Notes: a model not told the origin generated them from the sequence alone. 20,000 nucleotides of DNA from Fervidicoccaceae archaeon (GCA_038734945.1 JAVYOA010000003.1:60907-80906), one strand, 5' to 3'. Shown: positions 1-16,464, counted from the stretch's first letter. Translations and numbers: made by a program.

Positions 1-1155
1 GACAAACAGCTCTTCCTTCACAATTCCAGCAGATAGAGGAGGAAGACCTGCAGCGCTTAGAGCCCCTATTAAGAATCCAGCTGTCTCAATTTTGAATCCC
101 TTTCCCCAAAGTCCCTTCAGCCTCGAGATATCCCTTGTGTGGAGGGAGTGCTCTACTCTTCCACTCACAAGGAATAAAAGTGCCTTGAAGAGAGCATGAT
201 TGAAGAGGTATAGTAGGGCAACGTAGAACTCCCCAAGACATATTGCTATGAACATGAGTGAGAGGGAACTAAGTGTGCTGAAGGCCAGGACTCTCTTTAT
301 ATCCATTGAAACCAAGCCAGCTAGCGAAGAGAGGTAAAGAGTAATTATAGATACTGCTAGAAGAAAAGCAACAGCTGCTTGATTTCCAAGGAAAATTGGA
401 TAGAATCTTAGCATGAGATATACTCCAGCTTTAACCATTGTGGCAGCATGGAGCAGTGCGCTTACTGTGGTGGGCCCTTCCATAGCATCGGGAAGCCATG
501 TGTGCAGCGGAAATTGAGCGGACTTCCCCATTGCCGCGAGAACCAGGAGTGGTAAAAAGGGAATAAGTTTCAATGAAAGCTGCTGAGAGGACAGAATCGC
601 TGGAATGCTGGATTCTCCGTAATATAGAGCAATAGAGGCAAATGCCATTAAACCAACGTCTCCAATTCTGGTCATGATCAGGGCCTTCATTCCAGCCCTC
701 CTGGCTTCTTTCCTTTCCCACCAATACGCTATTAAAAGCGCACTGCACACTCCAACAAGCTCCCAATTGAGGAGTAGATATATTATGTCGGAGGCTAGAA
801 CTAAGTTCAGCATTGCTCCAACGAAGAGAGAAATCAGAGAATAATACCTTGTAAAGTCCTTAGCATTCTTCATATAGTCAACACTGTAGATAGCGACTGC
901 ACTTCCAATGAGGCTCACAACAAGGGAGAAGAAGGCGGATAGCCTATCTAGATATAGCGATATATGTGGAAGAAATTGTATCTCTATTGGAAGATATGGC
1001 AGAGATATTAAATACATTGATATTGCTAGAGAAAGAATTGCTGAGGCAATTGCAAGCAGCTCAGCAATTGCTCTCCTTCTGAAAAGAAGGATAAGAGCAG
1101 AGGCTACAAAGCTGTTGAGGGAGAGGATTGCGAGAAGATTTGTTGTGGTTTCCAC
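1..1155 (-). CDS. NuoL/MrpA-like antiporter-type membrane subunit of the hydrogenase complex (3' end runs off the window)
   Basis: Not in the ORF track because it has no stop in the window; translated by hand. GTG at 1155 follows a GGGGTGA RBS, and the frame is open to position 1: METTTNLLAILSLN...LNWELVGVCSALLIAYW...RIGDVG...MGKSAQFPLHTWLPDAMEGPTTVSALLHAATMVKAGVYL...DIKRVLAFST...NHALFKALLFL. These are hallmark NuoL/ND5 motifs. Confidence 0.93.
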   Translation of the reverse strand, partial: METTTNLLAILSLNSFVASALILLFRRRAIAELLAIASAILSLAISMYLISLPYLPIEIQFLPHISLYLDRLSAFFSLVVSLIGSAVAIYSVDYMKNAKDFTRYYSLISLFVGAMLNLVLASDIIYLLLNWELVGVCSALLIAYWWERKEARRAGMKALIMTRIGDVGLMAFASIALYYGESSIPAILSSQQLSLKLIPFLPLLVLAAMGKSAQFPLHTWLPDAMEGPTTVSALLHAATMVKAGVYLMLRFYPIFLGNQAAVAFLLAVSIITLYLSSLAGLVSMDIKRVLAFSTLSSLSLMFIAICLGEFYVALLYLFNHALFKALLFLVSGRVEHSLHTRDISRLKGLWGKGFKIETAGFLIGALSAAGLPPLSAGIVKEELFV

Positions 1156-1162
1156 TTTTTCA

Positions 1163-1444
1163 TCACCCCGAGTGCTCTCTCAGTTCATCGAAATCCTCAA
1201 CCTTCCTGCTCTTAGAAAGGGATATGAGAAAGGATATGAGAACAGCTTCCGAAATTCCAGAAATGCTTGCTATTAGAACTATGGCAAATGAAGATGGACA
1301 TATGGAGGAAATAAGATAAACTGCTCCAATTGATGCTGAAAAGATTCCCAATATGAACCTAAAGAGGCTTCTATAGGTTAGAATAGCAGCTATGCCCGCA
1401 CTTATGAGGAGAGAAGATAAAATTGCTGTCAATACTGGTATCAT
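1163..1444 (-). CDS. NuoK-like small 3-TM membrane subunit
   Basis: 93 aa with three hydrophobic helices. ISGISEAVLISF resembles NuoK TM3 (AAAEAAIG). It lies between J-like and L-like genes, with an ATGA overlap and a GGAGGTG RBS. Confidence 0.72.
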   Translation of the reverse strand: MIPVLTAILSSLLISAGIAAILTYRSLFRFILGIFSASIGAVYLISSICPSSFAIVLIASISGISEAVLISFLISLSKSRKVEDFDELREHSG

Positions 1445-1896
1445 TTTCTAGCACCTCCAAGCAAAATTATGATTATTCCTATGGCTATCACTAGAGCAGT
1501 AGCAAGGGAAGTTATGTCTAGATAGCTTATCGGGAGAGTGGGGGAAAGAATGCATGAACCCCCTCTAGGACCCGCTATTTTAATTGCTGTTGAAAAGAGA
1601 ACAGAAACTAGGGCAGGTATAACTATCAGCTTCAATAGCTTGCCCGATGAGGCTATTACTGCTTCTTTTTTGCTGAGAAGAATGGTTGAGACATATGTGA
1701 GAGCAGTTAGTCCGCCGCTGTAAATGAGAACGACTGCTAATCCTGCCTTAGGATCCACTTCAGCAGCTATGGAGAGACCTATGAGCAGAGAGCCAAAAAG
1801 GATAGATACTATGCTGAGAGACCACTTCTCTGTAATCAATGAAAATATGATGACAGCGCTCCCTAGTATGGCCAGGGCTGAAGCGATAATGTCCAT
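1441..1896 (-). CDS. NuoJ-like membrane subunit
   Basis: About 151 aa with about 5 TM segments. VLIYSGG resembles the NuoJ TM3 motif (IIVYAGAI). Start placed at ATG 1896 after GGTGGG; the ORF track extends to 1908. Confidence 0.7.
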   Translation of the reverse strand: MDIIASALAILGSAVIIFSLITEKWSLSIVSILFGSLLIGLSIAAEVDPKAGLAVVLIYSGGLTALTYVSTILLSKKEAVIASSGKLLKLIVIPALVSVLFSTAIKIAGPRGGSCILSPTLPISYLDITSLATALVIAIGIIIILLGGARK

Positions 1897-1908
1897 CTTT
1901 CCCACCAC

Positions 1909-2265
1909 TCATTTTATTATGATTATTGGATCCACATTCTTCCTCATCTCTATGGCATTCTGCCTGCACACCTGGGCGCATAGACCACAATAGATGCACT
2001 TTGAATAATCGAAGCTTGGATTCTTGATTTCAACCTGTCTATTGCCAAGCATTCTCTTTCCTCCAGGTATCATGGTTATTGCCTGAGCTGGACAGGATAA
2101 TGCGCAGAGAGAACAACCAATGCACTTATCTGCTATCAGGACTGGTATGCCTCTTGAAACTTCTGTGAATGCTCTTTCAGTATCTTCTGATGGAAAAGTC
2201 TCCGGTCTTGAAAAAAAGCTCTCTATAGCTTCAAACACTGTCTTCACGCTTTTTTTCGCTACCAT
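1909..2265 (-). CDS. NuoI/HycF-like 2x[4Fe-4S] ferredoxin subunit
   Basis: Two cluster motifs, CIGCSLCALSCP and CIYCGLCAQVCR; located between the H-like and J-like genes. Confidence 0.92.
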   Translation of the reverse strand: MVAKKSVKTVFEAIESFFSRPETFPSEDTERAFTEVSRGIPVLIADKCIGCSLCALSCPAQAITMIPGGKRMLGNRQVEIKNPSFDYSKCIYCGLCAQVCRQNAIEMRKNVDPIIIIK

Positions 2266-3233
2266 AATCCCATCCTCCAGCTTGTTATTATTAGCGCCTG
2301 TATCACGAGCATTGATGCTAATGGAAGAGCAAGCCTCATGGGAAGGAGCATGCTCCTCACTCTCACAGCTACTCCCTCAATGAATGCTAGAAGTATAATT
2401 AGTGCGATAGACTTGAGAAGGAAGTATATTGGCCAAAGAATTGGTAAGCTTGAAACAAGGGGACCATAGCCTCCGCCAAGGAATAGGGACACTATAAGAA
2501 AAATGCTGAGGGTAAAGTCCATGTCGCCAGAGAGTCTTATGTAAGCCAGAGTCCTGCCTGAAAGCTCACTCATCCAACCTGCTGCAATTTCCTGCTTGGC
2601 GTGAGGCAAATCGAATGGAGGCTTCTCTAGCTTTGCAAGCAAGGAGATAACTGCTACAGCAAAACCTATAGGCTGATAAACAATGATAGGAACATTCTGT
2701 ACCTGGTACTGAACGATCTCACTAATCGTAGCTGATCCTACCTGCAAAAATATGATTGCAAAGCAAGACAAGAAGATCAGCTCATAGAGAGAGTACTGCA
2801 CTATTAACCTGCTTGTACCCACTAGTGTGAAGGGAGTCTTTATGGACATTCCCGCCATGAGATAGGAAAAAGATGTCAAGGCAAATATAACTAATATGAC
2901 CAACAGATCTCCGTTGAAGCTGAGAATAGAGCTCTTGGAAAAAAATGGTATGTGGAGAAAACCGTAGGTGAGAAGTGTAACTCCCACGAGTGGAGAGAGC
3001 CTGTACAGGAGTATATCTGTTCCCTCTGAAATTATCTCCCTCTTTCCCAATAGCTTCAGGAAATCAGCTACAGGCTGCAGGATGCCTCCAGGTCCAGTGA
3101 AGTACGGTCCAATTCTTTTCTGAACCCTAGCTATGGCTTTTCTCTCTACCCATTCAAAGAAAAAGCAGAGAAAGAGAAATACTATTCCTGCCCCAAGAGC
3201 TAGAATTGGTACTAGAAAAATGGAGTAGCTCAT
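2259..3233 (-). CDS. NuoH/HycD-like membrane anchor subunit
   Basis: ERKAIARVQKRIGP, GILQPVADFLKLLGK, PFDLP, FLGGG and about 8 TM segments. ATG at 3233 makes an ATGA overlap with the large-subunit stop; the ORF track start is 3242. Confidence 0.93.
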   Translation of the reverse strand: MSYSIFLVPILALGAGIVFLFLCFFFEWVERKAIARVQKRIGPYFTGPGGILQPVADFLKLLGKREIISEGTDILLYRLSPLVGVTLLTYGFLHIPFFSKSSILSFNGDLLVILVIFALTSFSYLMAGMSIKTPFTLVGTSRLIVQYSLYELIFLSCFAIIFLQVGSATISEIVQYQVQNVPIIVYQPIGFAVAVISLLAKLEKPPFDLPHAKQEIAAGWMSELSGRTLAYIRLSGDMDFTLSIFLIVSLFLGGGYGPLVSSLPILWPIYFLLKSIALIILLAFIEGVAVRVRSMLLPMRLALPLASMLVIQALIITSWRMGLW

Positions 3234-4894
3234 AGAGAACACCCAAGGCCAATTCCCTGAGGAGCTGCCCTAGGCAGTTTTACGATGAACGGCTCCTTTC
3301 TGTTAATGTAGACTATTGCTCTATCCTCACAGCTGAAGCAGGGATCTATCATTGTTAAAATTAGGGGGACGTCGGATAGCGTGTATCCTTTTATTGCCTC
3401 TGAAGCCAAAACGAGATTTGGCAGTGTTGGCGTTCTTATTTTAACTCTGTAGGGATTTCTCATTCCGACTTTGCCCCTAATATAATAGTAGAGTTCTCCC
3501 CTCGGTGGCTCAGTTCTTGCAAAAGCTTCACCATCCTTTGAAGTTCCCATGAAGAAAGCTGAAGGAACGGGATTTCCGGAGGGCATTTTCTCAACTAGCT
3601 GTTGGATTATTCCTATTGATTCGAAGGTCTCCTTTACTCTTACTTCAGCAATTGTGAGAACGTCTCCCCTATTTCCAGTTACAACATCAAACGAAACTTC
3701 TGGATAAGCGCCATATGGTTCAACTTTTCTTATATCATAGGGAACACCCGTGGCTCTGAGAACTGGGCCAACGGCTCCTGAAGAAATAGCTGTGTCTGCA
3801 TGATATATGCCTATGCCTCTTGTTCTTTCTTCCAGAGGACCGTATGACATGACCTCCTCAGTTATTCTTCTGAACTCCTTCTCAAATTCCGATATTTCTC
3901 TCTTCACGACCTTCAATTTTTCATCCGAAACATCGTATCTAACTCCTCCAATCGTAATGAAGGATTTATTGACCCTATTTCCCGCAATCATTTCTAAGAG
4001 CTTCATTATCCTCTCTCTGGCAGACCAGAGCCACATGAACATTGAGTCGAAACCTACCCAGTATCCGAGGAGTCCTATCCATAGAGAGTGGCTGTGTATC
4101 CTCTCAAGCTCGGCAACTAGCGTCCTCAAGAATTCTGCCTTTTTATTCGGAGATATCCCCAAGAGATTCTCAACAGCAAGAGTATACGTCCAAGAATGAT
4201 GAAAGCTGCAAATTCCGCATACTCTCTCAACCAGAAAGAGGGTTTGAAGGAAGCTCCTGGTCTCTGCAAGTTTCTCTATGCCCCTATGAACGTACCCTAT
4301 TCTTGGTCTTGCCTCCACAATCTTCTCTCCTTCGAGTGCTATGGCAAAGTGCTCAGGCTCCTTTAGAGCTGGATGATACGGGCCAAAAGGCAGTATTACT
4401 ATGCTCTCAACACTGTACCTGGAGGACCCAGTTATTGGTATAACCGATGAAGGTGGCTCCTGCATCTGAACTTCATTGAGGATCTGCATTAGTTGTTCAA
4501 GTGAAACTGTTTTGAGGAGAGGCGGTGGGGCACCTTGAGGATAGCTTTCCGGTAGGAGAAGCTTGGCATTTGGTAGAGGATGTCCAATGAAGCTGACTCC
4601 AAACATGTCTCTTATTTCCATCTCATATATATAGGCCCCTCTGATCTGAGAGCTTATGCTCTCGACAGCTGCTCCTTTTTCAGGAAGGGATACTAGCAGA
4701 TGTTTCATTTCTCCTTTCCAATTATCAAAGGAATAGATCAGTTCAATGCTGTTTGCCACATGGGTGGCGGTGATTCCTACTAAATGGGGATAGCTCGAGA
4801 TAACTGCTCTGACGGTTTCAGGAAGGGATTCCGGAAATACTGTTAAGACAGAAGAGCTGTCATTCCTTTTCAGGCTTACTGCTCCCATTCTCAT
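3230..4894 (-). CDS. Group 4 [NiFe]-hydrogenase large subunit fused to an N-terminal NuoC-like domain (HycE/HyfG-type architecture)
   Basis: The N-terminal part has YEMEIRDMFGVSFIGHP (NuoC-like). It is followed by FGPYHPALKEP, GYVHRGIEK, the L1 motif ERVCGIC, ELERIHSH, EPPRGE, YRVKIRTP and the L2 motif DPCFSCEDR, then a 29-aa C-terminal extension. The GGAGGTG RBS favours ATG 4894 or 4888 over the ORF-track start 4906. Confidence 0.93.
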   Translation of the reverse strand: MRMGAVSLKRNDSSSVLTVFPESLPETVRAVISSYPHLVGITATHVANSIELIYSFDNWKGEMKHLLVSLPEKGAAVESISSQIRGAYIYEMEIRDMFGVSFIGHPLPNAKLLLPESYPQGAPPPLLKTVSLEQLMQILNEVQMQEPPSSVIPITGSSRYSVESIVILPFGPYHPALKEPEHFAIALEGEKIVEARPRIGYVHRGIEKLAETRSFLQTLFLVERVCGICSFHHSWTYTLAVENLLGISPNKKAEFLRTLVAELERIHSHSLWIGLLGYWVGFDSMFMWLWSARERIMKLLEMIAGNRVNKSFITIGGVRYDVSDEKLKVVKREISEFEKEFRRITEEVMSYGPLEERTRGIGIYHADTAISSGAVGPVLRATGVPYDIRKVEPYGAYPEVSFDVVTGNRGDVLTIAEVRVKETFESIGIIQQLVEKMPSGNPVPSAFFMGTSKDGEAFARTEPPRGELYYYIRGKVGMRNPYRVKIRTPTLPNLVLASEAIKGYTLSDVPLILTMIDPCFSCEDRAIVYINRKEPFIVKLPRAAPQGIGLGCSL

Positions 4895-5324
4895 CTGCAC
4901 CTCCAAGCTGATTCTCGTAGAATTTTTTGATGATGGAATAGATCATTCTCGGATTTGGAGGACATCCTGGAATGCATATCACGTTTTTGAGAACCTTATC
5001 CACTCCTCCTATAACATTGTACCCTCCTCGGAAGACTCCTCCACTGCATGCACAAGTTCCAATAGCCAGAACAACCTTGGGTTCAGGAATTTGATCGTAT
5101 ATCATTCTCAGGGATCCAAGAGTCTGTCTCGTGACTGGACCGGTTACAACCAATATATCAGCGTGTTTTGGAGAGGAAGTTAGAATTGCTCCAAGCCTCT
5201 CAACATCGTACTTAGGTGTGAGAGATGCTACCACCTCAATATCACAGCCGTTGCATCCACCTGAGTTGAAATGGAAGAGCCAAGGGCTCCTCCTCACCAA
5301 CCGGAGTGAGCTATTTTTTTCCAA
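4860..5324 (-). CDS. [NiFe]-hydrogenase small subunit (NuoB/HycG-like, one [4Fe-4S] cluster)
   Basis: GGCNGCDIE, YDVERLG, SPKHADILVVTGPVT, PKVVLAIGTCACSGG and IPGCPP. The likely start is TTG 5324 after GGGGGAG; the ORF-track start 5384 lies deep inside the upstream gene. Confidence 0.93.
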   Translation of the reverse strand: MEKNSSLRLVRRSPWLFHFNSGGCNGCDIEVVASLTPKYDVERLGAILTSSPKHADILVVTGPVTRQTLGSLRMIYDQIPEPKVVLAIGTCACSGGVFRGGYNVIGGVDKVLKNVICIPGCPPNPRMIYSIIKKFYENQLGGADENGSSKPEKE

Positions 5325-5658
5325 TGTCTCTCTCCCCCAAGTAGACGAAGTATCCAAGCACTGTTGCGAACAGGGATGCTGCAAAGAGGAGAATAATCCA
5401 AGGAGAAATTTCTACGAAGAAAGTAGCTACGAGGAGCGACTCGACTGCGAGAAGTATGGATAGAAATATGATCATATCGCTCACATGAACAAAATTCTCT
5501 CCATTGAGAGAGATCCCCGCTGTATATGGCTGGGACTTTCTTCCCCCCTTTTCAACATTGAAGAGGGGAGACTTGCTGGTTAGAACATATATGGCTGCGA
5601 ATAATGCTCCTATCACCAGAACAGAAATTATTTCTAGCTCTATTTCAGCTAGCTCCAA
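5311..5658 (-). CDS. NuoA-like 3-TM membrane subunit, first gene of the operon
   Basis: 115 aa: TM1, then a loop KSQPYTAG (compare NuoA K..PYECG), then two TMs including ILLAVES (compare FDVE). A GGAGGT RBS lies at 5666-5671. Confidence 0.7.
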   Translation of the reverse strand: MELAEIELEIISVLVIGALFAAIYVLTSKSPLFNVEKGGRKSQPYTAGISLNGENFVHVSDMIIFLSILLAVESLLVATFFVEISPWIILLFAASLFATVLGYFVYLGERDIGKK

Positions 5659-5868: not shown

Positions 5869-6420
5869 TTGAAAGAGCTATCAGCAAAAGAGCTGGTTGC
5901 GTTACTGTTGGAAGAAATTGAGAATAAAAAGTCCACAATAGCATGCATAGGAAGCTCTCTCAGATCGGATGATGCCGCTGCATTGAAGCTCTGCGATATT
6001 TTAAGGAAGCGAACAAGCAGCGATGAAATATTAATATGTGATGGTGGACTGGAAAACTGCTTGGATAGGCTAATCGAAAAAAAGCCGAGTAGGCTAGTAA
6101 TATTGGACGCCGCGGCTGTTGATACAAATGAGGCAGGAAAAATTTTCCTCTTTGATATTGAAGAAATCTCAGAGGGAGCTGCTTGGTCCCACAGAATTCC
6201 AATTTCAATGGCGCTGAAAATTTTGAGTAATAGCATATTGCTGGACTCAGTGATCTTAATTGGAATTGGAGGAGAGCGCTTTGATATTGGAGAGGAATTA
6301 TCCCCTTCGGTTGAGAAGCTGATAAACTATGTGGATGAACTTCTTGGAATACGTATGAAGACAATGTTAGAGCTAGAGTTTTCTTCTTATGAGAGCAAAG
6401 ATAAGAATAGGGATGGCTGA
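5869..6420 (+). CDS. hycI: Hydrogenase maturation endopeptidase, HycI-like
   Basis: IACIGSSLRSDDAAA, GLEN, LVILDAA and SHRIP supply the Asp/Asp/His metal ligands of the HycI/HybD family. It is adjacent to a large subunit with a cleavable tail. Confidence 0.88.
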   Translation: MKELSAKELVALLLEEIENKKSTIACIGSSLRSDDAAALKLCDILRKRTSSDEILICDGGLENCLDRLIEKKPSRLVILDAAAVDTNEAGKIFLFDIEEISEGAAWSHRIPISMALKILSNSILLDSVILIGIGGERFDIGEELSPSVEKLINYVDELLGIRMKTMLELEFSSYESKDKNRDG

Positions 6421-7818
6421 AAAAATAAGGGAAATAATTGGGAGGGGAATTCCAATTATTTGCTGTGTAAATAAGGAAACCAGCGGATAGCCCTCCAGCT
6501 TTATTTGAATCGATCTCAGCAACAGAGGAATTTCTCCCAGTAGAAAGCTAATGATGGCAATATCTGCCCTTCTGAGCTCCGGAAGCTCGAGAGCTGCTAT
6601 TAGCTGTATTGCTGTTGGAAGAAGCAGAAGCGATGAGATAACTGAGAGCTCTACTATGAATGACAATCTCCAGATGGAGAAGAGGCCTGAGAAAAGGAGG
6701 GAGAGAGCAACGATAACCCTACTTAATTGTATCTCCATTCTTTCAGATATCCTTCTTGAGTTCCGAAGGAGAGATGAAATATTCGAGGATACAGTGATCG
6801 TTATTCCATTGATAGTAGAGATAGCTGCTGCAAAGATGCTGACGAGAATGAATGATGAAAGAATCTCGTTCCCATAACCTAGAAGGGCATATGTGACCTG
6901 ATCTCTGTTGCTTATAGAGGGGAAAAGTGAGGCAATTGTAAGAGACCTAGCTAATAGTCCTGTCAAGACCATGAAAGCCGTGTATAGAAGCCCATAGATG
7001 CCGAAAGCAGTGATGGCCTTTCTAAGATCTTTTTCGCTTCTGGGGGAAAAGAGCCTCTGTACGACCTGGGGGTTGGAAAGTGCGAAAAATATCCAGGGGA
7101 TGGTGTAGCTCAGAAAGGTTCCGATCGTCCAATACCCCTGTCCAACAGAGAGGGATCCAGAGCTTTCCAAGAGGGAAAAGGCTCCGTGTATGCCTATACT
7201 ATGATTTGTCAAACTCAAGACGAATAAGAAGAATGCTAATCCAGCAGAGAGCATCCATATCCCCTGCATAGCATCTGTGAAAGCTATGCTCCACATCCCA
7301 GCTATCATAGTCCAAACAAAGGAAATCATCACGGAAACGAGAACACCCAAAACATAGCTCATTCCAAGGAAGCTGAATGCTAGAGAAAGACCTTGTATTT
7401 GAGCTGAAAGATAGGGAATGAGGGCTATCATTTGAAATATTGAGATGAATAGAGCAAATTTTCTGGAGCCGAACATATGCTCATTCAGCTCCGAAACTGT
7501 AGATATCTTGGCATCTCTCGAGATTTTCCACAGTTTATTGGCATATAATGAGAGGAGAAACAATGTTGCTATTAGATAGGAAAGCTCATATCCCAGACTT
7601 CCTAATCCTGTGGAGTAGGAGAGGCCAACCAATCCGACTACCATGAAGGCGCTGTAAGTAGTTGATGCATATGCCATGAAACTTAGAAACCATCCAAGTC
7701 TTGTGTGTGCAGAGTAGAAATCCGTGGCACTCCTGGAAAGAAATCTCCTGGAAAAATATGCCAGCATCGATCCAAGCAATACGTAAGCAGAAAACATTAG
7801 AATAAATGAAGAGATCAA
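6373..7818 (-). CDS. Sodium:solute symporter family (SSF; PutP/PanF-like) transporter
   Basis: 481 aa with about 13 TM segments; motifs DFYSA, ASTTYSAFMVVGLVG, PYLSAQIQG, GMWSIAFTDAMQG, NPQVVQRLF and FAAAISTING. The substrate cannot be determined from sequence. Confidence 0.92.
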   Translation of the reverse strand: MISSFILMFSAYVLLGSMLAYFSRRFLSRSATDFYSAHTRLGWFLSFMAYASTTYSAFMVVGLVGLSYSTGLGSLGYELSYLIATLFLLSLYANKLWKISRDAKISTVSELNEHMFGSRKFALFISIFQMIALIPYLSAQIQGLSLAFSFLGMSYVLGVLVSVMISFVWTMIAGMWSIAFTDAMQGIWMLSAGLAFFLFVLSLTNHSIGIHGAFSLLESSGSLSVGQGYWTIGTFLSYTIPWIFFALSNPQVVQRLFSPRSEKDLRKAITAFGIYGLLYTAFMVLTGLLARSLTIASLFPSISNRDQVTYALLGYGNEILSSFILVSIFAAAISTINGITITVSSNISSLLRNSRRISERMEIQLSRVIVALSLLFSGLFSIWRLSFIVELSVISSLLLLPTAIQLIAALELPELRRADIAIISFLLGEIPLLLRSIQIKLEGYPLVSLFTQQIIGIPLPIISLIFSAIPILIFALIRRKL

Positions 7819-7823
7819 TATCT

Positions 7824-8066
7824 CTATTCCCTCCTAATTGAATAATTGACAATGATGAGAGCAATCAAGGAAAGAGAAATCCAGTAGAGAAGAAGAGAGA
7901 TGCCGCTTATTTTCAGAATAAAGGGAAGATAGACCAGAAACAAGATGATTAGGGCTGCTAAATATAAAGTGAGCTTGGAGTGCGGGGGGTGGGATTTGAA
8001 CCCACGCAGGCCTACGCCAACGGATCTTAAGTCCGCCCCCTTCGTCCAGCTCGGGCACCCCCGCAT
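7824..8066 (-). CDS. Small 2-TM membrane protein, probable symporter accessory subunit; the ORF reads through the tRNA-Leu gene
   Basis: The C-terminal ~51 aa (SKLTLYLAALIILFLVYLPFILKISGISLLLYWISLSLIALIIVNYSIRRE) form two TM helices and end 5 bp before the SSF start, which is the usual position of SSF partner genes. The only ATG is at 8066, overlapping tRNA position 1. The start is uncertain (alternative TTG at 7943). Confidence 0.6.
   Translation of the reverse strand: MRGCPSWTKGADLRSVGVGLRGFKSHPPHSKLTLYLAALIILFLVYLPFILKISGISLLLYWISLSLIALIIVNYSIRRE
7981..8064 (-). tRNA. tRNA-Leu (anticodon TAA), intronless, CCA not encoded
   Basis: GCGGGGG TG CCC GAGCTGGACGAA GGG G GCGGA CTTAAGA TCCGT TGGCGTAGGCCT GC GTGGG TTCAAAT CCCAC CCCCCGC A. 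It has a complete cloverleaf, a long variable arm, discriminator A and a canonical T-loop. Confidence 0.97.
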
Positions 8067-8068
8067 CT

Positions 8069-8740
8069 CTATCCCCCAATTGAATTCTCTTCAAATAAGT
8101 TTTTATCTTTCCAATTAATTTCTCTGACTATCCTTGCCGGCCTGTGACTTAATACTAGCACTTTGTCGCTTATTTCTCTGAGTTCTTCCAATTGATGAGA
8201 TACTATTATCATTCCAATTTTCAATCTGCTCCTCAGCGATATCAAGGTTTCATGCAAGGATCTTATTGAAGCCCTATCTATTCCTGTATAGGGCTCATCG
8301 AGAAGTAATATGTCTGGAGAAGTAATCAAGGATCTTGCCAGAGCAGCTTTTCTGGCTGTTCCACCGCTAACCTCTCTGACTCTTTTTTCAAGGTGCTCCT
8401 CTATACCAAACATATGAGCTAGTTCTTCCAGCCTCTTCCCTGCCTCACTTTCATTGATGCCTGAGAGCTTCGCTGCAAGTAGAATGTTCTTTTTGAGGTT
8501 GAACCAAGGAAGAAGCTGATTATCCTGTGGGGTATATCCAATCCTTCCATGTACCTCTACTTTTCCCGAATCTGGCTTGAGAATACCCACAATTATCTTG
8601 AGAAGAGTACTTTTACCCGCTCCATTTGGACCAACAAGACCTATTGCTTCTCCCTTCTTCAATGAAAAAGAGATCTCATCGATTACCAGCAGTCCATTGT
8701 AGGATTTTCTAATCCTGTCTATGACAACTAGCTCATCCAA
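8069..8740 (-). CDS. ABC transporter ATP-binding protein, NitT/TauT family
   Basis: Walker A GPNGAGKST, Q-loop YTPQDNQLLPW, signature VSGG, Walker B LLLDEP, H-loop VSH and the NitT/TauT-like tail VLSHRPARI. Start is TTG 8740 (after GAGGTG) or 8752. Confidence 0.93.
   Translation of the reverse strand: MDELVVIDRIRKSYNGLLVIDEISFSLKKGEAIGLVGPNGAGKSTLLKIIVGILKPDSGKVEVHGRIGYTPQDNQLLPWFNLKKNILLAAKLSGINESEAGKRLEELAHMFGIEEHLEKRVREVSGGTARKAALARSLITSPDILLLDEPYTGIDRASIRSLHETLISLRSRLKIGMIIVSHQLEELREISDKVLVLSHRPARIVREINWKDKNLFEENSIGG
8091..8107 (-). promoter_or_regulatory. Putative BRE-TATA promoter of tRNA-Leu, inside the ABC ATPase 3' end
   Basis: The minus strand reads GATAAAAAC-TTATTTGA: a purine-rich BRE-like run followed by a TATA-like box at -34 to -27 from tRNA G1, a spacing that fits an archaeal promoter with a short leader. 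Confidence 0.45.
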
Positions 8741-9456
8741 TTGATGAACCACCTCTCCAATTGCCTTAGGATGGCCAAATCAACCAATATCATCAGAGCT
8801 ATTAGTATGATGCTCCAAGCAAATACTCCTCCTTTGTATCCGAGATTGTAGCAGTAGACAAGCATGTACCCAACCCCTCCACTGCTACCAAGGGCTTCAG
8901 CAACTACACTGATTCTTAGAGAGTTCCCAATGGCGGCTCTGCTTCCGCTGGCCAAATATGGCAGAACTCCAGGAAATATGAAATATTCAATCAGCTGCCT
9001 TCTTCTAGCACCCATAGCTCTTGCCATATCTCCAAACTTTTCGACTACAACCTTTGCTCCATTGAGGCCCACAGTCAGCAATATAGGATAGGATGTGGCT
9101 GCTACAACTAGAATAGGAGGAAGCGAGCTTGTAAGCCCGAAGATCAAAAGGAAGATCAGAGTCCAGACGAGAGCAGAGACGCTTTGAATAAATGTGTTTA
9201 GGGCCTCAATGAGAGAGGCTGCATGATCGTTAATATAGTAAAGCGCTATTGAAATGAATGCTGCTGCAAGAGAAATTAGGAACCCGGCTATAGTATTCAG
9301 GAGAGTTCTGCCTATGTTGAATAGAAGGCTCCTAGTACCTATCTGCTCAAGGTAGCTCAGCACATCCTGTCCGCTGGGAACTGACATAGGGAACTCGTGA
9401 TACAGCAAGAACCAAAGGCTTAGAATGACAGCGGATAGATAAAACCATCCAAGCAT
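8728..9456 (-). CDS. ABC transporter permease, NitT/TauT family
   Basis: About 6 TM segments, EAA-like loop DMARAMGARRRQ, and FPGVLPYLASG...VVAEALGSSGGVGY. Confidence 0.92.
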   Translation of the reverse strand: MLGWFYLSAVILSLWFLLYHEFPMSVPSGQDVLSYLEQIGTRSLLFNIGRTLLNTIAGFLISLAAAFISIALYYINDHAASLIEALNTFIQSVSALVWTLIFLLIFGLTSSLPPILVVAATSYPILLTVGLNGAKVVVEKFGDMARAMGARRRQLIEYFIFPGVLPYLASGSRAAIGNSLRISVVAEALGSSGGVGYMLVYCYNLGYKGGVFAWSIILIALMILVDLAILRQLERWFINWMS

Positions 9457-9458
9457 GC

Positions 9459-10448
9459 TTAGCCTGATGCGTAGAATACCTGATCACCTATTGTTGAGGG
9501 ATCTTGTGCTAGATATCCTCCCTTCCAAGCCAGAGACCATGAGCTCCTTATTCCCTGAATCACGGTAGAGTTCAGAGTGTTGTCGAGGATAACAACCCTG
9601 CCGTACAAATATGCTGCTTCTTTTTGCGAAAGGCCATAGAGGCGAGCAAGCATCTGCTCTATTGATTGGGGATCGGTTTTCCATATATCAACAGCTGTCT
9701 TTCTCATGGAGAGAAAAGCGCTTAGCTTTTGCCCGTCGCTTGTGAAGTTTTTCGATGCAACCCATACAAGCATTACAGGAATTCCTGTGGAGTTGGACTG
9801 CTTCCAGAGATCCTGAAACGTACCAATTATTGTGAAGTTGTATCTCACCACGCCTATTGAGACAAACGGCTCCCAAACCACTGCAGCAGCTCCATCTCCT
9901 CTGGCTAGGGCATCCAAGATTGCTCCTGGGGGAGAATTAATACCTATTATATCTCCTCCTCCTTGAGGAGAATCAACCACGCTCAGATTGTATATGCTCT
10001 TCATATATGCCTTGAAAAGCATGTATGTTCCAGTGCTAAGCAGCGATATAACGTTTTTTCCCCTTAGCTGCTGGAATGATGAGATTGCAGATGTTCGAGA
10101 AAGAACTGCTTGGTTCTGCAGCATTTCGGGAGAAATTATTTGCACGGAAACTCCGCTCTGAATAAGCTTTGCTGCCATCTCAGAAGGAATGACTGCGACA
10201 TCGATGTCTCCTCTTTCGATTGCTGCCAATATGTCGGTAGTTTTTTCAAAGCGGTAGATCTCCAGCTGCACTCCCTGCTTAGAGCTCAAGTTGAAGTATT
10301 CCATTTCATCAAGCGTGCTAATGCCTCCTTGAAGAGTGCCGGCTCTAATTGTAATGATGTTACTTCCACCTCTCTCCAGGAACAATAAATATGAAGAAAG
10401 AATCAGTAGAGCAAGAACTACGAGTACTGCCAGCAACCATCTCCTCAA
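9459..10448 (-). CDS. ABC transporter substrate-binding protein, NitT/TauT (SsuA/THI5-like) family
   Basis: N-terminal membrane anchor, AIERGDIDVAV, QLRGKNV and ALARGDGAAAVVWEPF. GGGGTGA RBS; first gene of the SBP-permease-ATPase trio. Confidence 0.88.
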   Translation of the reverse strand: MRRWLLAVLVVLALLILSSYLLFLERGGSNIITIRAGTLQGGISTLDEMEYFNLSSKQGVQLEIYRFEKTTDILAAIERGDIDVAVIPSEMAAKLIQSGVSVQIISPEMLQNQAVLSRTSAISSFQQLRGKNVISLLSTGTYMLFKAYMKSIYNLSVVDSPQGGGDIIGINSPPGAILDALARGDGAAAVVWEPFVSIGVVRYNFTIIGTFQDLWKQSNSTGIPVMLVWVASKNFTSDGQKLSAFLSMRKTAVDIWKTDPQSIEQMLARLYGLSQKEAAYLYGRVVILDNTLNSTVIQGIRSSWSLAWKGGYLAQDPSTIGDQVFYASG

Positions 10449-10503
10449 GAGTATTCACCCCTGGTCTGTTTTAAATTTGGGGATTTTTTCCCCTGATATA
10501 TAT

Positions 10504-11418
10504 TTAGAAATAGCCCAGCGCTACATCCAGCAGAGTTCCAGCGCTGACGACTATTCCGATGAATAGATTTAAATTGAATGCCGTTGGAATTTTGCTCAAG
10601 TCCTTCCTAACAATGAGCACCTGAAACAGCATTAGTAGTGATGAAACTGCTACTGACGCAGCTGAGATCTCTCCCAGTCCATACTCATGAACAGCAAGGA
10701 AGAAGGATAAGGAAGAAACGGCATAGAAAATGGAGGAAGTTTTTATTGCTCCAAAAGCACCAAGCTTCGCTGGAATGCTCCCGAGTCCCTCTTTTCTGTC
10801 ATAGTCTATGTCCATTATACTATAGAGTATATCAAAACCTGCTACCCAGAAGGTTACCCCAATTAGATATAGCCACGGAACGGTCTTCAGCGCTGTTTGC
10901 AAAGAATTCACGAATGAGCCAGAAGCAGCAATTGCTCCCCCGAAAACTACCAGTCCAAGGGAGAGACCTAAGTGCAGATGGGGCAGGCTGTGCATTCTCT
11001 TAGCATAAGGATAGCTCATAGCTACAGCATATAGAATGGGGGAGAGCAATAGGGCATAAATGTTGAGAAGCATAGCAGAAGTGAAGTAAACAGCAGAGCC
11101 CAATATGACAACTACCCAGGCATCCCTGAGGCTTAAAGCCCCTGTCACAAGAGGTCTTTTCACGGTCCTGGGATTTCTCCTATCTATTTCCAAGTCTGCT
11201 ATGTTATTGAAGCTCATTCCAGCTGTTCTCAACCCAAATACTGCAAGAGTTGAGAGCAAAAACGTTCTCAAAGAATATGGAAATCCTGAAAGGACTATGC
11301 CAACATAGGCGAATGGAAGGCTGAAAAGCGTGTGCTCTATTCTTATGAGCCTCATCACTGCCCTCATTTTTCCAAAGCTTTGAACTTTGCCTGGATCCCA
11401 GCTAGTAGAATCTCTCAA
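10504..11418 (-). CDS. ubiA: UbiA-family aromatic polyprenyltransferase, MqnP-like
   Basis: IRIEHTLFSLPFAY, FNNIADLEIDRRNPRTVKRPLVTG, YPYAKR and WVAGFDILYSIMDIDYDRKEGLGSIP; overlaps the upstream UbiD-family gene. Confidence 0.9.
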   Translation of the reverse strand: MRDSTSWDPGKVQSFGKMRAVMRLIRIEHTLFSLPFAYVGIVLSGFPYSLRTFLLSTLAVFGLRTAGMSFNNIADLEIDRRNPRTVKRPLVTGALSLRDAWVVVILGSAVYFTSAMLLNIYALLLSPILYAVAMSYPYAKRMHSLPHLHLGLSLGLVVFGGAIAASGSFVNSLQTALKTVPWLYLIGVTFWVAGFDILYSIMDIDYDRKEGLGSIPAKLGAFGAIKTSSIFYAVSSLSFFLAVHEYGLGEISAASVAVSSLLMLFQVLIVRKDLSKIPTAFNLNLFIGIVVSAGTLLDVALGYF

Positions 11419-12895
11419 TCTTGTTCCACCCCTTCAGAATTGTTCCCAGAATACCACTTATCTTTGCTAGAACAGCTTCATCCTCCTTCACCATCTCGGG
11501 CCACTCTCTTCCATAATTTTCCTCCGGAAGCTTTCTAGTAGCATCTATTCCTAGCTTTCCGCCATAGGAGGGGGAGATGTTAGCTGGATCGAGGGCATCG
11601 CTGTGGGAATTCCCGATTATCAGAATATCTCTTGAAGGATTCACGTTTGAAGATATTGCCCATATTACCTTTCCAATATCTCTGGGATCCACATCATCGT
11701 CAACTACAATTATTATTTTTGTGAGGGAGCTCTGGCCCAGGCCCCATAGAGCGCTCATGACCTTCTTTGCTTGTCCTGGGTATCTCTTCTTTATAGAAAC
11801 TATCAGCATCCCCTGAAATACTCCCTCTGGAGGATAGTTGACTTCAACTATCTCGGGAAGGAGCAGCTTCATAATTGGCTTGAATATTCTCTCTATTGCT
11901 TTTCCAATTACACCATCCTCGAGAACGGGTAGTCCAGTCACGCTTCCATAGTAAATAGGATTGTCTCTGAAGTAAACTCTATCGACAGAGAAAATTGGAT
12001 ACTTTTCAGTGGGCTTATCGTAATATCCCCAGTGATCTCCAAAGGGTCCCTCGCTGGATAAGTTCCTCAGCTGCACTTTTCCTTCAATCACTATTTCCGC
12101 ATTGGATGGTACAGGGATGCTGTTAGGGAGCTCATAAAGCTCTATTCCTCTTCCTCTCAGAACCCCAGCAAAGAGGGCCTTGTCAATTGGATATGGAACG
12201 GGAGAGACCGCTGCTAACATCGTTCCAGGATCGCTTCCTATTACTACTGCAACTGGGAGCTCATCGACTCCTTTTTCCAGAGCAGCAGAATGCGCCATAG
12301 CTCCTCTCTTATGAATCTGCCAATGTATCACTGCACGGCCTCCATCTAATATCATCATTCTATAGACTCCCATATTGAGAACTCCCAAGACAGGATCCCT
12401 GGTTATCACAATTGGAAAAGTTGCGTATTTCCCCCCATCCTTTGGCCAGGTTCTAAAGAATGGTATTTTCTCGAGTGGATTGTCGTCCTTCTCCAGAATG
12501 TTGCTTTCAAAGTCTGCATGAGATGTCCTGGAGGGAAGATACTTGGAGGTTCTGAATAGCTCTCCTGTAGCTTTCATTTTTTCAAGAAGAGAAAGAGGAG
12601 GCTGAATCAGCTGCATCGGTATAAGTCTCTCCCCTATATCCTCAAGCTTTTCAACTGATAGCGCTTGCCTAATTACTCTTATGCTGCTGAAAAGGTTCCC
12701 TGCAACTCTCCAGCCATCATACCCCTCAATTTTATTTAAGAGGACAGCCGGTCCTCCAGCATACATCAATTTTCTAAGCAGAGCAGGTATTTCGAGATCG
12801 GGTGAAAGGGGGTTGTTCACTTCAACAAGCTCTTCCTTGCTCTTCAACCACTCAATGTAGCTCCTCAAATCAGCTAGGGGATCCAATTGAATCAC
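11402..12895 (-). CDS. ubiD: UbiD-family prFMN-dependent decarboxylase, menaquinone-biosynthesis (MqnL-like) type
   Basis: WPKDGGKY, NMGVYRM, HWQIHK, EIVIEG, EGPFGDHWGYY, KKRYPGQAKKVMSALWG, IIVVDDDVD and GGKLGIDAT. Confidence 0.92.
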   Translation of the reverse strand: MIQLDPLADLRSYIEWLKSKEELVEVNNPLSPDLEIPALLRKLMYAGGPAVLLNKIEGYDGWRVAGNLFSSIRVIRQALSVEKLEDIGERLIPMQLIQPPLSLLEKMKATGELFRTSKYLPSRTSHADFESNILEKDDNPLEKIPFFRTWPKDGGKYATFPIVITRDPVLGVLNMGVYRMMILDGGRAVIHWQIHKRGAMAHSAALEKGVDELPVAVVIGSDPGTMLAAVSPVPYPIDKALFAGVLRGRGIELYELPNSIPVPSNAEIVIEGKVQLRNLSSEGPFGDHWGYYDKPTEKYPIFSVDRVYFRDNPIYYGSVTGLPVLEDGVIGKAIERIFKPIMKLLLPEIVEVNYPPEGVFQGMLIVSIKKRYPGQAKKVMSALWGLGQSSLTKIIIVVDDDVDPRDIGKVIWAISSNVNPSRDILIIGNSHSDALDPANISPSYGGKLGIDATRKLPEENYGREWPEMVKEDEAVLAKISGILGTILKGWNKIERFY

Positions 12896-14267
12896 TTCCC
12901 TTTCTTGGGAGCTTGAGCTGCTCTCCTGGAGCTATGTAGAAATAATCCTCAAGCATCGGATTTCCCAGAAAGATGTGTCTTCCATCCACTATAACCGGCG
13001 TTCTCATAATTTTTGCTATTGATTTCAAATCGAGATTTCTGAACAACTTGTGATCTGTAACAACTATTAAGCCATCTGCTCCTTTGAAGTCTCCGCTGAA
13101 CGGCTGTAGTCCCAGGCTCCTCAATTCCTCCTCCGAGTAAAATGGATCTAGTACTTCCACAATGCTCCCCCACGCCTCCAGCTCCCTTACAAGAGGAAGT
13201 GTTGGGGTGTTAACATGCTCCTTTACCTCCCCTCTATAACTAAGACCAAGAACAATTAGCCTTGAACCATTGAGAGGTCTTCCTGCTGCATTTAGGGCCC
13301 TCAAAGTTAGCTCCACCATGTGAACTGGCATAAGCTCATTTATCTCTCTAGACAGTCTCACTATTCTGGCTAGCTCGGGAAATGCATGTATTAGGAACCA
13401 AGGATAGACTGGTATGCAGTGCCCTCCAACGCCGGCTCCTGGCTTGTGAATGTGGCTGTAGGGCTGCGAATTCGCTGCATTTATTATTTCATTAACGCTC
13501 AGTCCAAGCTCCTCAGATATAAGTGCCAGCTCATTTGCCAGGGCTATGTTGACATCTCTATATACTCCCTCAAAGACCTTAACGGCTTCGGCCGCCCTTA
13601 TGCTTGATACAGGTATTACTCCCTTTTTGTTGATGGTTTCATAGATGCCGATCAGAGGCTCAAGGGTGCTCTTGTTTATTGCTCCTATGATCTTTGGATA
13701 GCTCTCAGTTATATCTCTTACAACCCTTCCGCTCATAGTTCTCTCCGGTGCATGAGCTATACCGAAGTCCTCCCCAGCTTTCAGCCCTGACATTGACTCC
13801 AGGACGAAGGCATATTTCTCGGTGGTTCCTGGAGGAAGGGTTGTTTCTGTTACAACAATGGATCCTTTTCTTAAACCCTTACCTATGCTGTTGATAGCAG
13901 CATCCATGCTCCTGAAATCAATGCCAGTTCTGGAAGCATAGACGGGGACTATTACTACTATCAAATTGCTCTGCGAGGCTGCCCATGTCCCATCAGTAGT
14001 AGCTATGAAATTTTTTCTCCTAAGGGCCCTTTCCAGCATTTCATCAGTACCTGGTTCAAATGGAATTGGATTCCTTCCCTTCATTAGCTCCTCGACAGTT
14101 TTTTCATTTATATCGACACCAATGACCTTGGCTCCATTCTCAGCAAAAACTAGAGCTAGGGGAAGCCCCATCTTTCCGAGGCCAAAAACTGAAACTGTTA
14201 TTTTCCCTTCTTTGAGATAAGCAGATGCTTCCTCCCTTCCTATGGAAAGCAAGTTCAAATCGATCAC
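12870..14267 (-). CDS. Nucleotide-sugar 6-dehydrogenase (UDP-ManNAc/UDP-GlcNAc dehydrogenase, WecC/WbpA-like)
   Basis: Rossmann motif GLGKMGLP, ETTLPPGTT, APER, AEAVKVFEGVYRDVNIALANEL, catalytic GVGGHCIP and VTDH. Confidence 0.92.
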   Translation of the reverse strand: MIDLNLLSIGREEASAYLKEGKITVSVFGLGKMGLPLALVFAENGAKVIGVDINEKTVEELMKGRNPIPFEPGTDEMLERALRRKNFIATTDGTWAASQSNLIVVIVPVYASRTGIDFRSMDAAINSIGKGLRKGSIVVTETTLPPGTTEKYAFVLESMSGLKAGEDFGIAHAPERTMSGRVVRDITESYPKIIGAINKSTLEPLIGIYETINKKGVIPVSSIRAAEAVKVFEGVYRDVNIALANELALISEELGLSVNEIINAANSQPYSHIHKPGAGVGGHCIPVYPWFLIHAFPELARIVRLSREINELMPVHMVELTLRALNAAGRPLNGSRLIVLGLSYRGEVKEHVNTPTLPLVRELEAWGSIVEVLDPFYSEEELRSLGLQPFSGDFKGADGLIVVTDHKLFRNLDLKSIAKIMRTPVIVDGRHIFLGNPMLEDYFYIAPGEQLKLPRKGSDSIGSPS

Positions 14268-14486
14268 CGGGCACTGGTCATTTTCTATAATTCCCTTTAT
14301 TACTATTGAGTTATCCTTGTATTAGAAGACACCAGGAAGCTCAGATAGTTATTTCTGAACTGTAACTAAAAGTCAGTATATATACAAAATATACAAATAT
14401 TTTAAAAAGACAAATACTTTTATATTGTTGTTTACAAGTTTGCAATTTGTATCTACTTACAATATATTTAAAAATAATTTAGAATA
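14268..14486. promoter_or_regulatory. AT-rich divergent promoter region with repeated ACAA/TTGT motifs
   Basis: Non-coding gap between head-to-head genes. Tandem ATATACAAA x2 at 14380-14397 and TTGTA-N6-TACAA at 14447-14462. Confidence 0.5.
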
Positions 14487-15308
14487 ATGGTGTTCAGAAT
14501 AATGGCGGGCGGGGCCAGCACATATAAACCAGCTCTTATTATATTCTCCGAGTCTCAACCTCTCTCCTGCATCGATGTTGAGCTTGTTGGAAAGCTCAAC
14601 GATGTTCTCTCTGAAAGCAACAGAATCATCGAGAAGATTAGGCAGAGAGGGACTGAAATAGTCGAAGTGAAAGCAGCCATTTCGGGAAACGAAGAAGAAA
14701 CAAGAGCAAATTTGCTTGTTGCAGTGAGGGATGTTGAGAGCAGCGCCTTGGCTCTATCTCGAGAAATCAAGGCTTCTCCCATTGTTTCGTATTCATCCCT
14801 CTCTGGGAGATTCAGAAACATATGCTATTCAATGAGGCAGTTTCCTATTGATGTTCTCGGACTAAGATGGATAATGATGGGTCCCGGGAACTACGAGGCT
14901 CTGACTCTTGGTATGAAAAAGGTCCTAGGTACACAGATATTTCCTTATTATCAGAGAAACTTGGGCATTCATATTGGAAAGAACGTCTACGAGTACTATG
15001 TGAAGGCTCTGGGAGGAATTGATAGGCTGGACGAAGCTATGAAATTTGCCTCAATGCTGCTTCTAGTTGCCGGATGGGGGGTTATTGAGGATTGGAACAT
15101 TGCAGAGAATGGAATAACATTGACTATAAGGGATAACTGGGAAATTCAGCTGTTTGAGACAAAAATGGTGGAGGAAAAGCCAAGAATAATTTTGGGGATG
15201 CTTGAGGGATTTTTCGGATCGTTGCTTAGAAGAGATGTTCTAGCCGACATTGTTTCCATTAAAAAAGAAAACAAAACAATTCTCGCAAAAATTTTCATTC
15301 GATTCTAA
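14487..15308 (+). CDS. Hypothetical protein, putative N-terminal ACT-like plus C-terminal V4R-like domain
   Basis: 273-aa ORF filling the gap. The C-terminal half has LGIHIGK...AGWGVIE...DNWE...ILGMLEGFF, a V4R-like pattern. The N-terminal ~100 aa have ACT-like alternating strand/helix character. Domain calls are by eye. Confidence 0.6.
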   Translation: MVFRIMAGGASTYKPALIIFSESQPLSCIDVELVGKLNDVLSESNRIIEKIRQRGTEIVEVKAAISGNEEETRANLLVAVRDVESSALALSREIKASPIVSYSSLSGRFRNICYSMRQFPIDVLGLRWIMMGPGNYEALTLGMKKVLGTQIFPYYQRNLGIHIGKNVYEYYVKALGGIDRLDEAMKFASMLLLVAGWGVIEDWNIAENGITLTIRDNWEIQLFETKMVEEKPRIILGMLEGFFGSLLRRDVLADIVSIKKENKTILAKIFIRF

Positions 15309-15374
15309 TTGCTTGTTTCTTTTTTAAAGCGTTGCTTCTATATTTCTGAGCTAGAATGCTTTAGCCATACCGGC

Positions 15375-15950: not shown

Positions 15951-16041
15951 AACTACCACTCTTCCTAACGCTCTGTTCAATTGGATAATAAAATATAGCA
16001 CGAGCTGCACTCTTTAAAACCATGCTTCCAGAAAAGTTTCA

Positions 16042-16464
16042 ATGGAGATGCATTTGGGTAGAATTACCATTCCTAGAGAGCTGCTTAATCCCTTCATTGA
16101 GCAAATAAAGCTGTCCTTCAAGAACTACAATAGAATGATAGAGAGCTCAGGATATTATCTGAAACCAGTACACTATGTTACAAAGATCTCCAACGACGAG
16201 AGAAGAATATACATGTATTTGGGAAGGTACTGGTGGAAGATAATATACGTTGGAAGAGATGTAAAGGGGAGGCCAAGAATAAAGTGGATTTATATGGGAA
16301 AAGAAAGGCCAAGAGGTTTGCCTGAACCACCAAAAAATCCTCTGGAAGGACTAGCTATCTATATGATTGCAAGTGACAGAGAAAATTACTATTTTGAGAG
16401 AGAGGAAATGGCTTCTTTGCTGCTCAAAAAATTGAATGAATTTAGAAACAAACTTACTGAGTAG
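16042..16464 (+). CDS. Hypothetical basic, aromatic-rich protein
   Basis: 140-aa ORF filling the gap between nadM and prx, with GYYLKPVH...YLGRYWWK...KWIYMGK...[10 protein letters not shown]. Function not recognised. Confidence 0.75.

Follow-up and report, generated by a model that had tools for sequence, protein, structure and literature searches.

A probable group 4g [NiFe]-hydrogenase operon with a predicted complex I-type membrane arm from a Fervidicoccaceae archaeon

The origin of complex I from membrane-bound hydrogenases is a long-standing question, and the type of enzyme described here may help to show the route. It is encoded at one end of a stretch of 20,000 nucleotides from a hot-spring Fervidicoccaceae archaeon (GCA_038734945.1, JAVYOA010000003.1:60907-80906; G000:C3:60907-80906 in our genome set), hereafter called the window. 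The genes follow the order of the nuo genes of complex I, and the predicted large subunit keeps the metal ligands of a [NiFe]-hydrogenase. Is this locus a hydrogenase or a complex I, and how near does it stand to the transition between the two? The source genome (1.34 Mb in 9 contigs) is 99.95% complete, and the nearest named relatives of the large subunit are found in Fervidicoccaceae metagenome-assembled genomes, at 80% identity. Our analysis indicates that the product of the locus is very probably an energy-converting [NiFe]-hydrogenase of the membrane that belongs to HydDB group 4g; it would be driven by ferredoxin, evolve H2 and translocate ions through a shortened complex I-type arm. The donor, the direction, the pumping and its stoichiometry are what we infer in this reading.

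Eight tightly coupled genes occupy positions 1-5658 of the window on the minus strand, in the nuo order A-like, B, CD, H, I, J-like, K-like and L. With the likely starts, the overlaps between adjacent genes measure 4-29 nt and the gaps at most 7 nt. This eight-gene plan had been described in the initial annotation and the genes were all found again, but the operon does not end at L (560 aa). Inspection of the sequence left of the window, which had been advised, revealed one further antiporter-like gene (N-like), followed by hypA (PF01155) and by a gene for a NUBPL/Mrp-MinD-type ATPase (PF10609), a type of ATPase that acts as HypB in some archaea. The operon thus contains nine structural genes plus maturation genes. 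The features are as follows:

5311..5658, minus strand: A-like subunit, 115 aa, 3 transmembrane (TM) helices, remote NuoA/ND3 homolog
4860..5324, minus strand: B, hydrogenase small subunit (NuoB/MbhJ type) with one [4Fe-4S] cluster, PF01058; open reading frame (ORF) open to 5384
3230..4894, minus strand: CD, fused NuoC-like domain and [NiFe] large subunit, PF00329 + PF00346 + PF00374; ORF open to 4906
2259..3242, minus strand: H, NuoH-type membrane anchor, 327 aa, PF00146
1909..2265, minus strand: I, NuoI-type ferredoxin-like subunit with 2x[4Fe-4S], 118 aa, TIGR01971 NuoI (E 3.8e-19), two CxxCxxCxxxC motifs
1441..1908, minus strand: J-like subunit, 155 aa, 5 predicted TM helices, remote NuoJ homolog
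1163..1444, minus strand: K-like subunit, 93 aa, 3 TM helices, NuoK/MrpC family, weak PF00420 match (E 0.0054)
1..1155, minus strand: L, NuoL-type antiporter-like subunit, residues 1-385 of 560 inside the window, PF00662 + PF00361
L003:10169-11476, minus strand, left of the window: N-like antiporter-like subunit, 435 aa, PF00361
5869..6420, plus strand: divergent hycI-type maturation endopeptidase, PF01750 (E 2.6e-9), TIGR00072 (E 8.9e-19), TIGR00142 (E 2e-16)

The likely start of B (5324) is preceded by a purine-rich stretch and that of CD (4894 or 4888) by GGAGGT, and the A gene has a TTG start with GGAGGT 7 nt before it. An AT-rich spacer of 210 nt lies between the A gene and the divergent hycI. 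We collected 13 operons of this type and aligned their A-, J- and K-like proteins as profiles. A chance arrangement is excluded because the gene set recurs in 13/13 of these related operons.

Judging from its motifs, the locus encodes a genuine [NiFe]-hydrogenase and not complex I, because CD keeps the Ni-Fe cysteine motifs and B has CNGC instead of SCCG. In CD, the cysteines and the hydrogenase Glu stand where the initial annotation had placed them: GPYHPALKEP is found at residue 175, RVCGIC at residue 228 and DPCFSCEDR at residue 521, followed by a tail of 29 residues. Both cysteine motifs and a C-terminal tail of 22-31 residues were present in 13/13 orthologs, and in none of the 10 canonical NuoD/NuoCD proteins examined (9 crenarchaeal NuoD and E. 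coli NuoCD). E. coli HycE and HyfG also carry both cysteine motifs, with a tail of 32 residues. In B, the motifs CNGC (residue 44), GTCACSGG and PGCPP provide four cysteines for a single proximal [4Fe-4S] cluster. The claimed CxxC in place of the tandem CC of NuoB was also observed, as CNGC was present in B of the window and in 5/5 checked orthologs, and SCCG in 7/7 canonical NuoB (that of the same genome and six from relatives). Among PDB chains, B scored highest with MbhJ (154.6 bits), before HycG (118.2) and complex I PSST (about 98). Similarly, CD matched MbhL with 299.8 bits (E 3.4e-88), HycE with 249.4, Aquifex NuoCD with 231.2 and MbsL with 186.5. The hycI gene is found at the same position in four other loci (L007, L008, L051, L144), and HypD and HypF are encoded elsewhere in the genome. 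The features of group 4 [NiFe]-hydrogenases are therefore present: a Cys-complete large subunit, a NuoB-like small subunit, a PF00146 anchor, PF00361 twice, and maturation genes.

The small membrane subunits are of a different character. Profile comparisons indicate homology of A with NuoA, of J with NuoJ and of K with NuoK. Compared with all PDB sequences, the A profile returned a single row at E ≤10, complex I ND3 of Drosophila (E 0.0024); the alignment runs end to end and covers the P-F-x-G loop motif and the Glu of TM2. With crenarchaeal NuoA, hhalign gave 91.5% (P 8.7e-7, 79 columns), for a set of 20 rows in which two wrong-strand ORFs (L085, L087) had been left. P44, G48 and E73 are invariant in the A-like alignment, and the window protein matched the NCBIfam NuoA model weakly (E 0.0092). 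In a Pfam scan, 0/11 A-like proteins were matched, nor were the A-like parts of four scanned proteins in which this module is fused to I.

For J, the comparison with 20 crenarchaeal NuoJ gave 85% (P 6.4e-6) over TM2-TM3. The J profile found two chance-level rows in the PDB (E 0.89 and 1.6), with no NuoJ or Mbh chains. In Pfam and NCBIfam, the window protein had no match; for the 12 J-like proteins of the clade with fused CD, Pfam gave just two PF00499 matches, both very weak (E 0.073 and 0.98). In two sister hydrogenase lineages, the J protein encoded at the corresponding position matched the same NuoJ family at E 2.4e-4 and 3.6e-10. An AlphaFold2 (AF2) model of J has five helices at a predicted local distance difference test score (pLDDT) of 69; Foldseek returned nothing at E ≤0.001 for it (best 0.47), and NuoJ/NdhG/ND6 chains were 7 of the top 8 rows. 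The K profile matched NdhE (8.3e-7), MbsG (3.7e-6), NuoK (1.2e-5) and MbhG (1.8e-3) in the PDB. The hhalign cross-controls J-NuoK, K-NuoJ, A-NuoK, J-NuoA and K-NuoA remained at or below 0.5%, and A-NuoJ at 2.2%.

Co-folding with A scored as the partner of H + J + K gave an ipSAE of 0.67, versus 0.01 for the best control, with contact agreement between runs of at least 88% and partner pLDDT of at least 62. The mark applied is passed by 116/157 solved complexes and by 2/215 mismatched pairs. In the co-folded model, TM2 of A lies against TM3 of J, TM3 of K and H. Such a pass indicates likeness, not binding, and may reflect a memory of solved complex I structures.

The larger membrane subunits H and L point in the same direction. 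In the PDB, H scored 113.5 bits with NdhA, 100.4 with Nqo8 and 99 with NuoH, versus 69.5 with HycD, 64.1 with MbsM and 58.6 with MbhM. For L, the scores were 232.7 bits (Nqo12), 203 (NuoL) and 197 (MrpA), versus 111 with MbhH. The N-like subunit matched MbsH (83.8 bits) and Nqo14 (67.4 bits). For the AF2 model of L (pLDDT 87.2), the top 37 listed Foldseek matches were all NuoL/ND5/NdhF chains. At its C-terminus the model shows a TM helix, a lateral helix of ~35 residues (498-532, at lower confidence) and a last TM helix, and the genome's own NuoL has ~26 residues more in the lateral-helix region. Yu et al. (2021, PMC8165549) link the length of helix HL to how many subunits it spans. The short lateral helix modelled for L would fit an arm with two, not three, antiporter-like subunits. 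The canonical Glu (TM5), Lys (TM7), His/Lys (TM8) and Lys (TM12) of L are kept in 8/8 sequences. Taken at the level of sequence, the enzyme looks like a mosaic, with a hydrogenase-like catalytic module (B, CD) and a complex I-like membrane arm.

It had been suggested that the enzyme may belong to a known but little-studied subgroup, and this is very probably the case. The HydDB table lists proteins of Thermofilum pendens (WP_011752735), Thermogladius (WP_014737566) and Thermofilum sp. 1910b (WP_020962956) as [NiFe] group 4g (PMC5037454), and their N-termini match the CD ORFs of three of our operons (L047, L050 and L046, respectively). The entry gives them as formerly 4d, 'Evolving', with 6 subunits and 'NuoL, NuoH, NuoC, [FeS] protein' (PMC5037454, rows 3175-3177). 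CD of the window falls with these proteins in one clade (100/99, starred), at 51-54% identity. Sondergaard et al. (2016, PMC5037454) describe group 4g as a loose cluster without a known function, and a 2026 study finds it polyphyletic (PMC13582414). The gene plan differs in other 4g members, among them the Ech2 type of Thermoanaerobacter kivui. Compared with the 6 subunits predicted in HydDB, the present operon has 9 structural genes, which adds NuoA-, NuoJ- and NuoK-like subunits and a second antiporter-like subunit. By these comparisons, the operon is very probably a further member of a known, uncharacterised 4g subgroup whose architecture has been under-described. No description of this gene plan, including the NuoA homolog, was found in the literature within reach of our search; subscription papers were outside it and may describe it. 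HydDB also holds a CD-fused 4g sequence of the methanogen Methanothermus fervidus (row 3182, PMC5037454), which is similar by eye over long stretches. This likeness hints at a transfer between Methanobacteriales and Thermoproteota.

Orthologs of CD at ≥51% identity were detected in 10/401 sampled Thermoproteota genomes, that of the window included. The hosts include Thermogladius sp. 4427co, T. calderae 1633, Thermofilum pendens and Infirmifilum. Across these lineages, at 50-80% identity, the Ni-Fe cysteines, the Glu of GPYHPALKEP, the tail, hycI and hypA/B are retained. Two gene orders were observed: A-B-CD-H-I-J-K-L-N in 6 operons, the window's among them, and B-CD-[I fused to an A-like module]-H-J-K-L-N in 7. 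The A-like module is therefore present in 13/13 operons, standing alone in the first 6 and joined to I in the other 7. In the fusions (L044-L050; for example L044:4931-5623 and L047:4718-5419, both on the plus strand), the NuoA-like 3-TM module stands at the C-terminus of the NuoI-like protein, for a total of ~230 aa. Such a fusion would put a cytoplasmic Fe-S domain directly in front of TM1, which seems hard to reconcile with the N-out orientation that the charges along the free A protein suggest.

A sister lineage (L144) has the order hycI-A-B-C-D-H-I-J-K-L-N, with C and D separate and all cysteines kept. Another relative, L145 (G338:C2:274000-292000), carries a B-C-D-H-I module (7156-10555, minus strand), also with all cysteines. 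Its divergent half (10823-16847, plus strand) contains NuoJ (PF00499, E 3.6e-10), a 96-aa ORF, NuoK and three antiporter-like genes, so that its membrane arm is even more complex I-like than that of the window operon. This relative keeps Lys at the TM7 position of its antiporter-like subunits. We also detected an A-B-CD-H-I cluster of 56% identity on a 4.7-kb contig (CAZUSK010000041.1, L010) filed under 'Candidatus Saccharibacteria', a placement that is probably a binning error.

We propose the following function. Reduced ferredoxin derived from fermentation would donate electrons to subunit I with its two [4Fe-4S] clusters; by way of the one cluster in B they would reach the Ni-Fe site of CD and there reduce protons to H2. 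The energy would be transmitted by the H/A/J/K interface to the two antiporter-like subunits, N-like and then L. Clamped together by L's short lateral helix, these subunits would export H+ (or Na+). The enzyme can probably also run in reverse. Ferredoxin is the simplest donor because no formate dehydrogenase, carbon monoxide dehydrogenase (CODH) or diaphorase gene was found in the operon; formate dehydrogenase and HycB-type genes were also absent beside it.

Several points weigh against this proposal. The assignments of A and J depend on remote similarity (E 0.0024 for A; hhalign 85-92%; best Foldseek E 0.47 for J), and the K-like subunit has no Glu in TM2. Also, the N-like subunit, with orthologs in L007, L043, L044, L046, L047, L050, L051 and L144, has Glu at the position of the canonical Lys of TM7 in 8/8 sequences and, by eye, in L144 (GVEAA), and it has no Lys in TM8. 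Because of these replacements in N-like and K, pumping by the proximal module is uncertain. The genome encodes two further [NiFe] large subunits and a canonical 11-gene nuo cluster, so that the physiological direction cannot be read from gene content. Expression gave no support, as no reads fell on the window in three metatranscriptomes of the same study (at 95% likeness, with ~3-5% of the data read), which does not amount to a test.

An enzyme working mainly in the uptake direction is the alternative that survives best, though we consider it unlikely. In such a case the ion gradient would drive the reduction of ferredoxin with H2 for anabolism, as with Eha/Ehb of methanogens. Group 4 enzymes are reversible, which favours this reading, as do the further hydrogenases of the genome. 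Most hosts of the orthologs (Thermofilum, Thermogladius, Fervidicoccaceae) are fermentative heterotrophs, which argues for H2 evolution, and the operon contains no genes for anabolic ferredoxin-dependent enzymes. The similar CD-fused 4g sequence of M. fervidus, which is a hydrogenotrophic methanogen, favours uptake, whereas the HydDB prediction for the orthologs is 'Evolving' (PMC5037454).

Much less likely is a Mbh-type hydrogenase (4d, Mrp-linked), in which the small ORFs would be diverged MbhI or MbhD/E/G-type subunits. MbhL and MbhJ are indeed the best solved matches of CD and B, MbsH is that of the N-like subunit, and the earlier HydDB class of the orthologs was 4d (PMC5037454). However, the MnhB family (PF04039) is absent from the whole genome, while it is present in 25/61 genomes of the order. 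As a control, proteins of the Mrp module were taken from Mrp-linked clusters in relatives, where the genes stand in another order, H-CD-I-B, and were assembled into six alignments. With hhalign, A reached at most 0.5% and J at most 0.6% against these alignments; K also stayed at or below 0.6%, except for 43% (22 columns) with the MrpC-like set, versus 97.4% with NuoK. No chain of 6CFW was found with the A or J profile at E ≤10, a PDB search being the only comparison made with MbhI, and H and L scored far higher with complex I than with MbhM and MbhH. The small ORFs are hence closer in these profile comparisons to NuoA, NuoJ and NuoK, as first annotated, than to Mrp subunits.

A relative of complex I that reduces quinone or another acceptor, or an enzyme that retains the cofactor without hydrogenase function, has slightly less credit still. 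The automatic NCBI names of relatives ('NADH-quinone oxidoreductase subunit C/D'), the complex I type of the membrane arm, and the NCBIfam models NuoD, NuoH and NuoL, which were the top models for the operon proteins with all scores below their cut-offs, would favour it. Against it stand the four Ni-Fe cysteines, the hydrogenase Glu, the cleavable tail, hycI and hypA/B, which are conserved over 50-80% identity, and the presence elsewhere in the genome of a canonical nuo cluster without these cysteines. Finally, a formate hydrogenlyase (FHL, group 4a) was rejected, as there are no formate dehydrogenase or HycB genes and CD falls outside the clade (100/99, starred) of Hyc/Hyf and 4a/4b-type sequences.

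Is the ferredoxin-driven hydrogenase proposed here close to the transition from hydrogenase to complex I, as had been suggested? A tree of the D domain was computed with IQ-TREE from 34 rows; it is unrooted, carries a long-branch warning, and one truncated ORF (L146) was left out. Three blocks were each supported with 100/99 (starred): NuoD (10 rows), Hyc/Hyf with 4a/4b-type sequences (9 rows) and the clade with fused CD (13 rows), of which L144 is the sister (92/93). In this tree, whose three blocks and L145 are resolved, the hydrogenase clade nearest to NuoD was not identifiable. The large subunit does stand outside well-characterised clades, being separate from Hyc/Hyf and from Mrp-linked 4b in a tree built without P. 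furiosus Mbh. A tree of H (35 rows, narrow sampling) was rooted on HycD/HyfC. It united the 4g-type H with NuoH of complex I (94/94, not starred), to the exclusion of the FHL-type and Mrp-linked H. Within this clade, E. coli and crenarchaeal NuoH were grouped (93/95), with the H proteins of hydrogenases outside that group. Approximately unbiased (AU) tests on the H tree did not reject the grouping of NuoH with Mrp-linked H (p 0.123) or with FHL-type H (p 0.053). Both trees were made without named Mbh, Mbx/Mbs, Ech, Coo, Eha/Ehb and Fpo sequences, and Mbh, Mbs and FHL were compared through PDB scores. The closeness to the transition is thus favoured by the H tree but not statistically secured, because the AU tests do not reject the alternative groupings.

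More tentatively, and as less likely than not, one may suppose that the membrane arm of this crenarchaeal 4g clade and the P-module of complex I are true orthologs (with NuoA, H, J, K, an N-type subunit and an L-type subunit with its lateral helix, in nuo order), the arm branching just outside the joint clade of bacterial and archaeal complex I. If this were true, the complete set of small subunits, NuoA included, would have been assembled on an H2-evolving [NiFe] enzyme before the loss of the Ni-Fe site. Among living systems, the enzymes of this clade would then come closest to the intermediate between hydrogenase and complex I, and could be studied in cultured Thermofilum and Thermogladius. 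Previous work gives another picture: NuoA and NuoJ are said to have no relatives in hydrogenases (Moparthi and Hagerhall, 2011, PMC3144371), and NuoA none outside complex I (COGcollator 2.0, 2026, PMC13399641). The present operon would place the small membrane set of complex I, in complex I order and with complex I-like NuoH and NuoL, in a [NiFe]-hydrogenase. As orthologs exist in cultured organisms, structural work and ion-pumping assays are feasible, and with them tests of module assembly and of coupling through two antiporter-like subunits.

Beyond the hydrogenase genes, the window contains genes for an SSF-family symporter (6373-7818), which also flanks the operon in Thermogladius (L009). 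It also contains ABC transporter genes (8069-10448) beside genes for a UbiA prenyltransferase and a UbiD-family decarboxylase (10504-12895, minus strand), 5 kb from the operon.

To our knowledge, the membrane arms of the solved hydrogenases (Mbh, FHL) and of the sulfane sulfur reductase Mbs are all arranged unlike that of complex I. Mbh of Pyrococcus furiosus (group 4d, PDB 6CFW) provides the best solved match of CD and B. Its chemistry, from ferredoxin to H2 with ion translocation, is the one proposed here and is established for Mbh. Yu et al. (2021, PMC8165549) describe it with a Mrp-type module MbhA-G, one antiporter-like subunit, and MbhI in the role of NuoA. In contrast, the window operon has no Mrp subunits; it encodes one NuoA-like and one NuoJ-like protein, and of its two antiporter-like subunits L is of NuoL type. 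With E. coli Hyc/Hyf (group 4a, PDB 7Z0S), the operon shares the fusion of a NuoC-like domain to the large subunit, the extension cleaved by HycI, and the hycI-type protease. It differs by the absence of formate dehydrogenase and HycB, by another gene order, by the position of CD outside their clade, and by H, for which the score with HycD is lower than with NuoH (69.5 versus 99 bits).

With complex I, the order A-B-C-D-H-I-J-K-...-L-N is common and every subunit is homologous. The nearest solved relatives of H, L, A, J and K are in complex I, and L shares the lateral helix and the final TM helix. The source genome also offers a direct comparison, since it contains a canonical 11-gene nuo cluster A-B-C-D-H-I-J-K-M-L-N (G000:C2:124413-134300; L053, 4413-14300, minus strand), whose NuoD lacks the Cys motifs and whose NuoB has SCCG. 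The paralogs are just 29-38% identical to the proteins of the hydrogenase operon, which is therefore no recent copy of the nuo cluster. Complex I has a Cys-less D, SCCG in B and three antiporter-like subunits, whereas the window operon has the Ni-Fe ligands, CNGC and two antiporter-like subunits.

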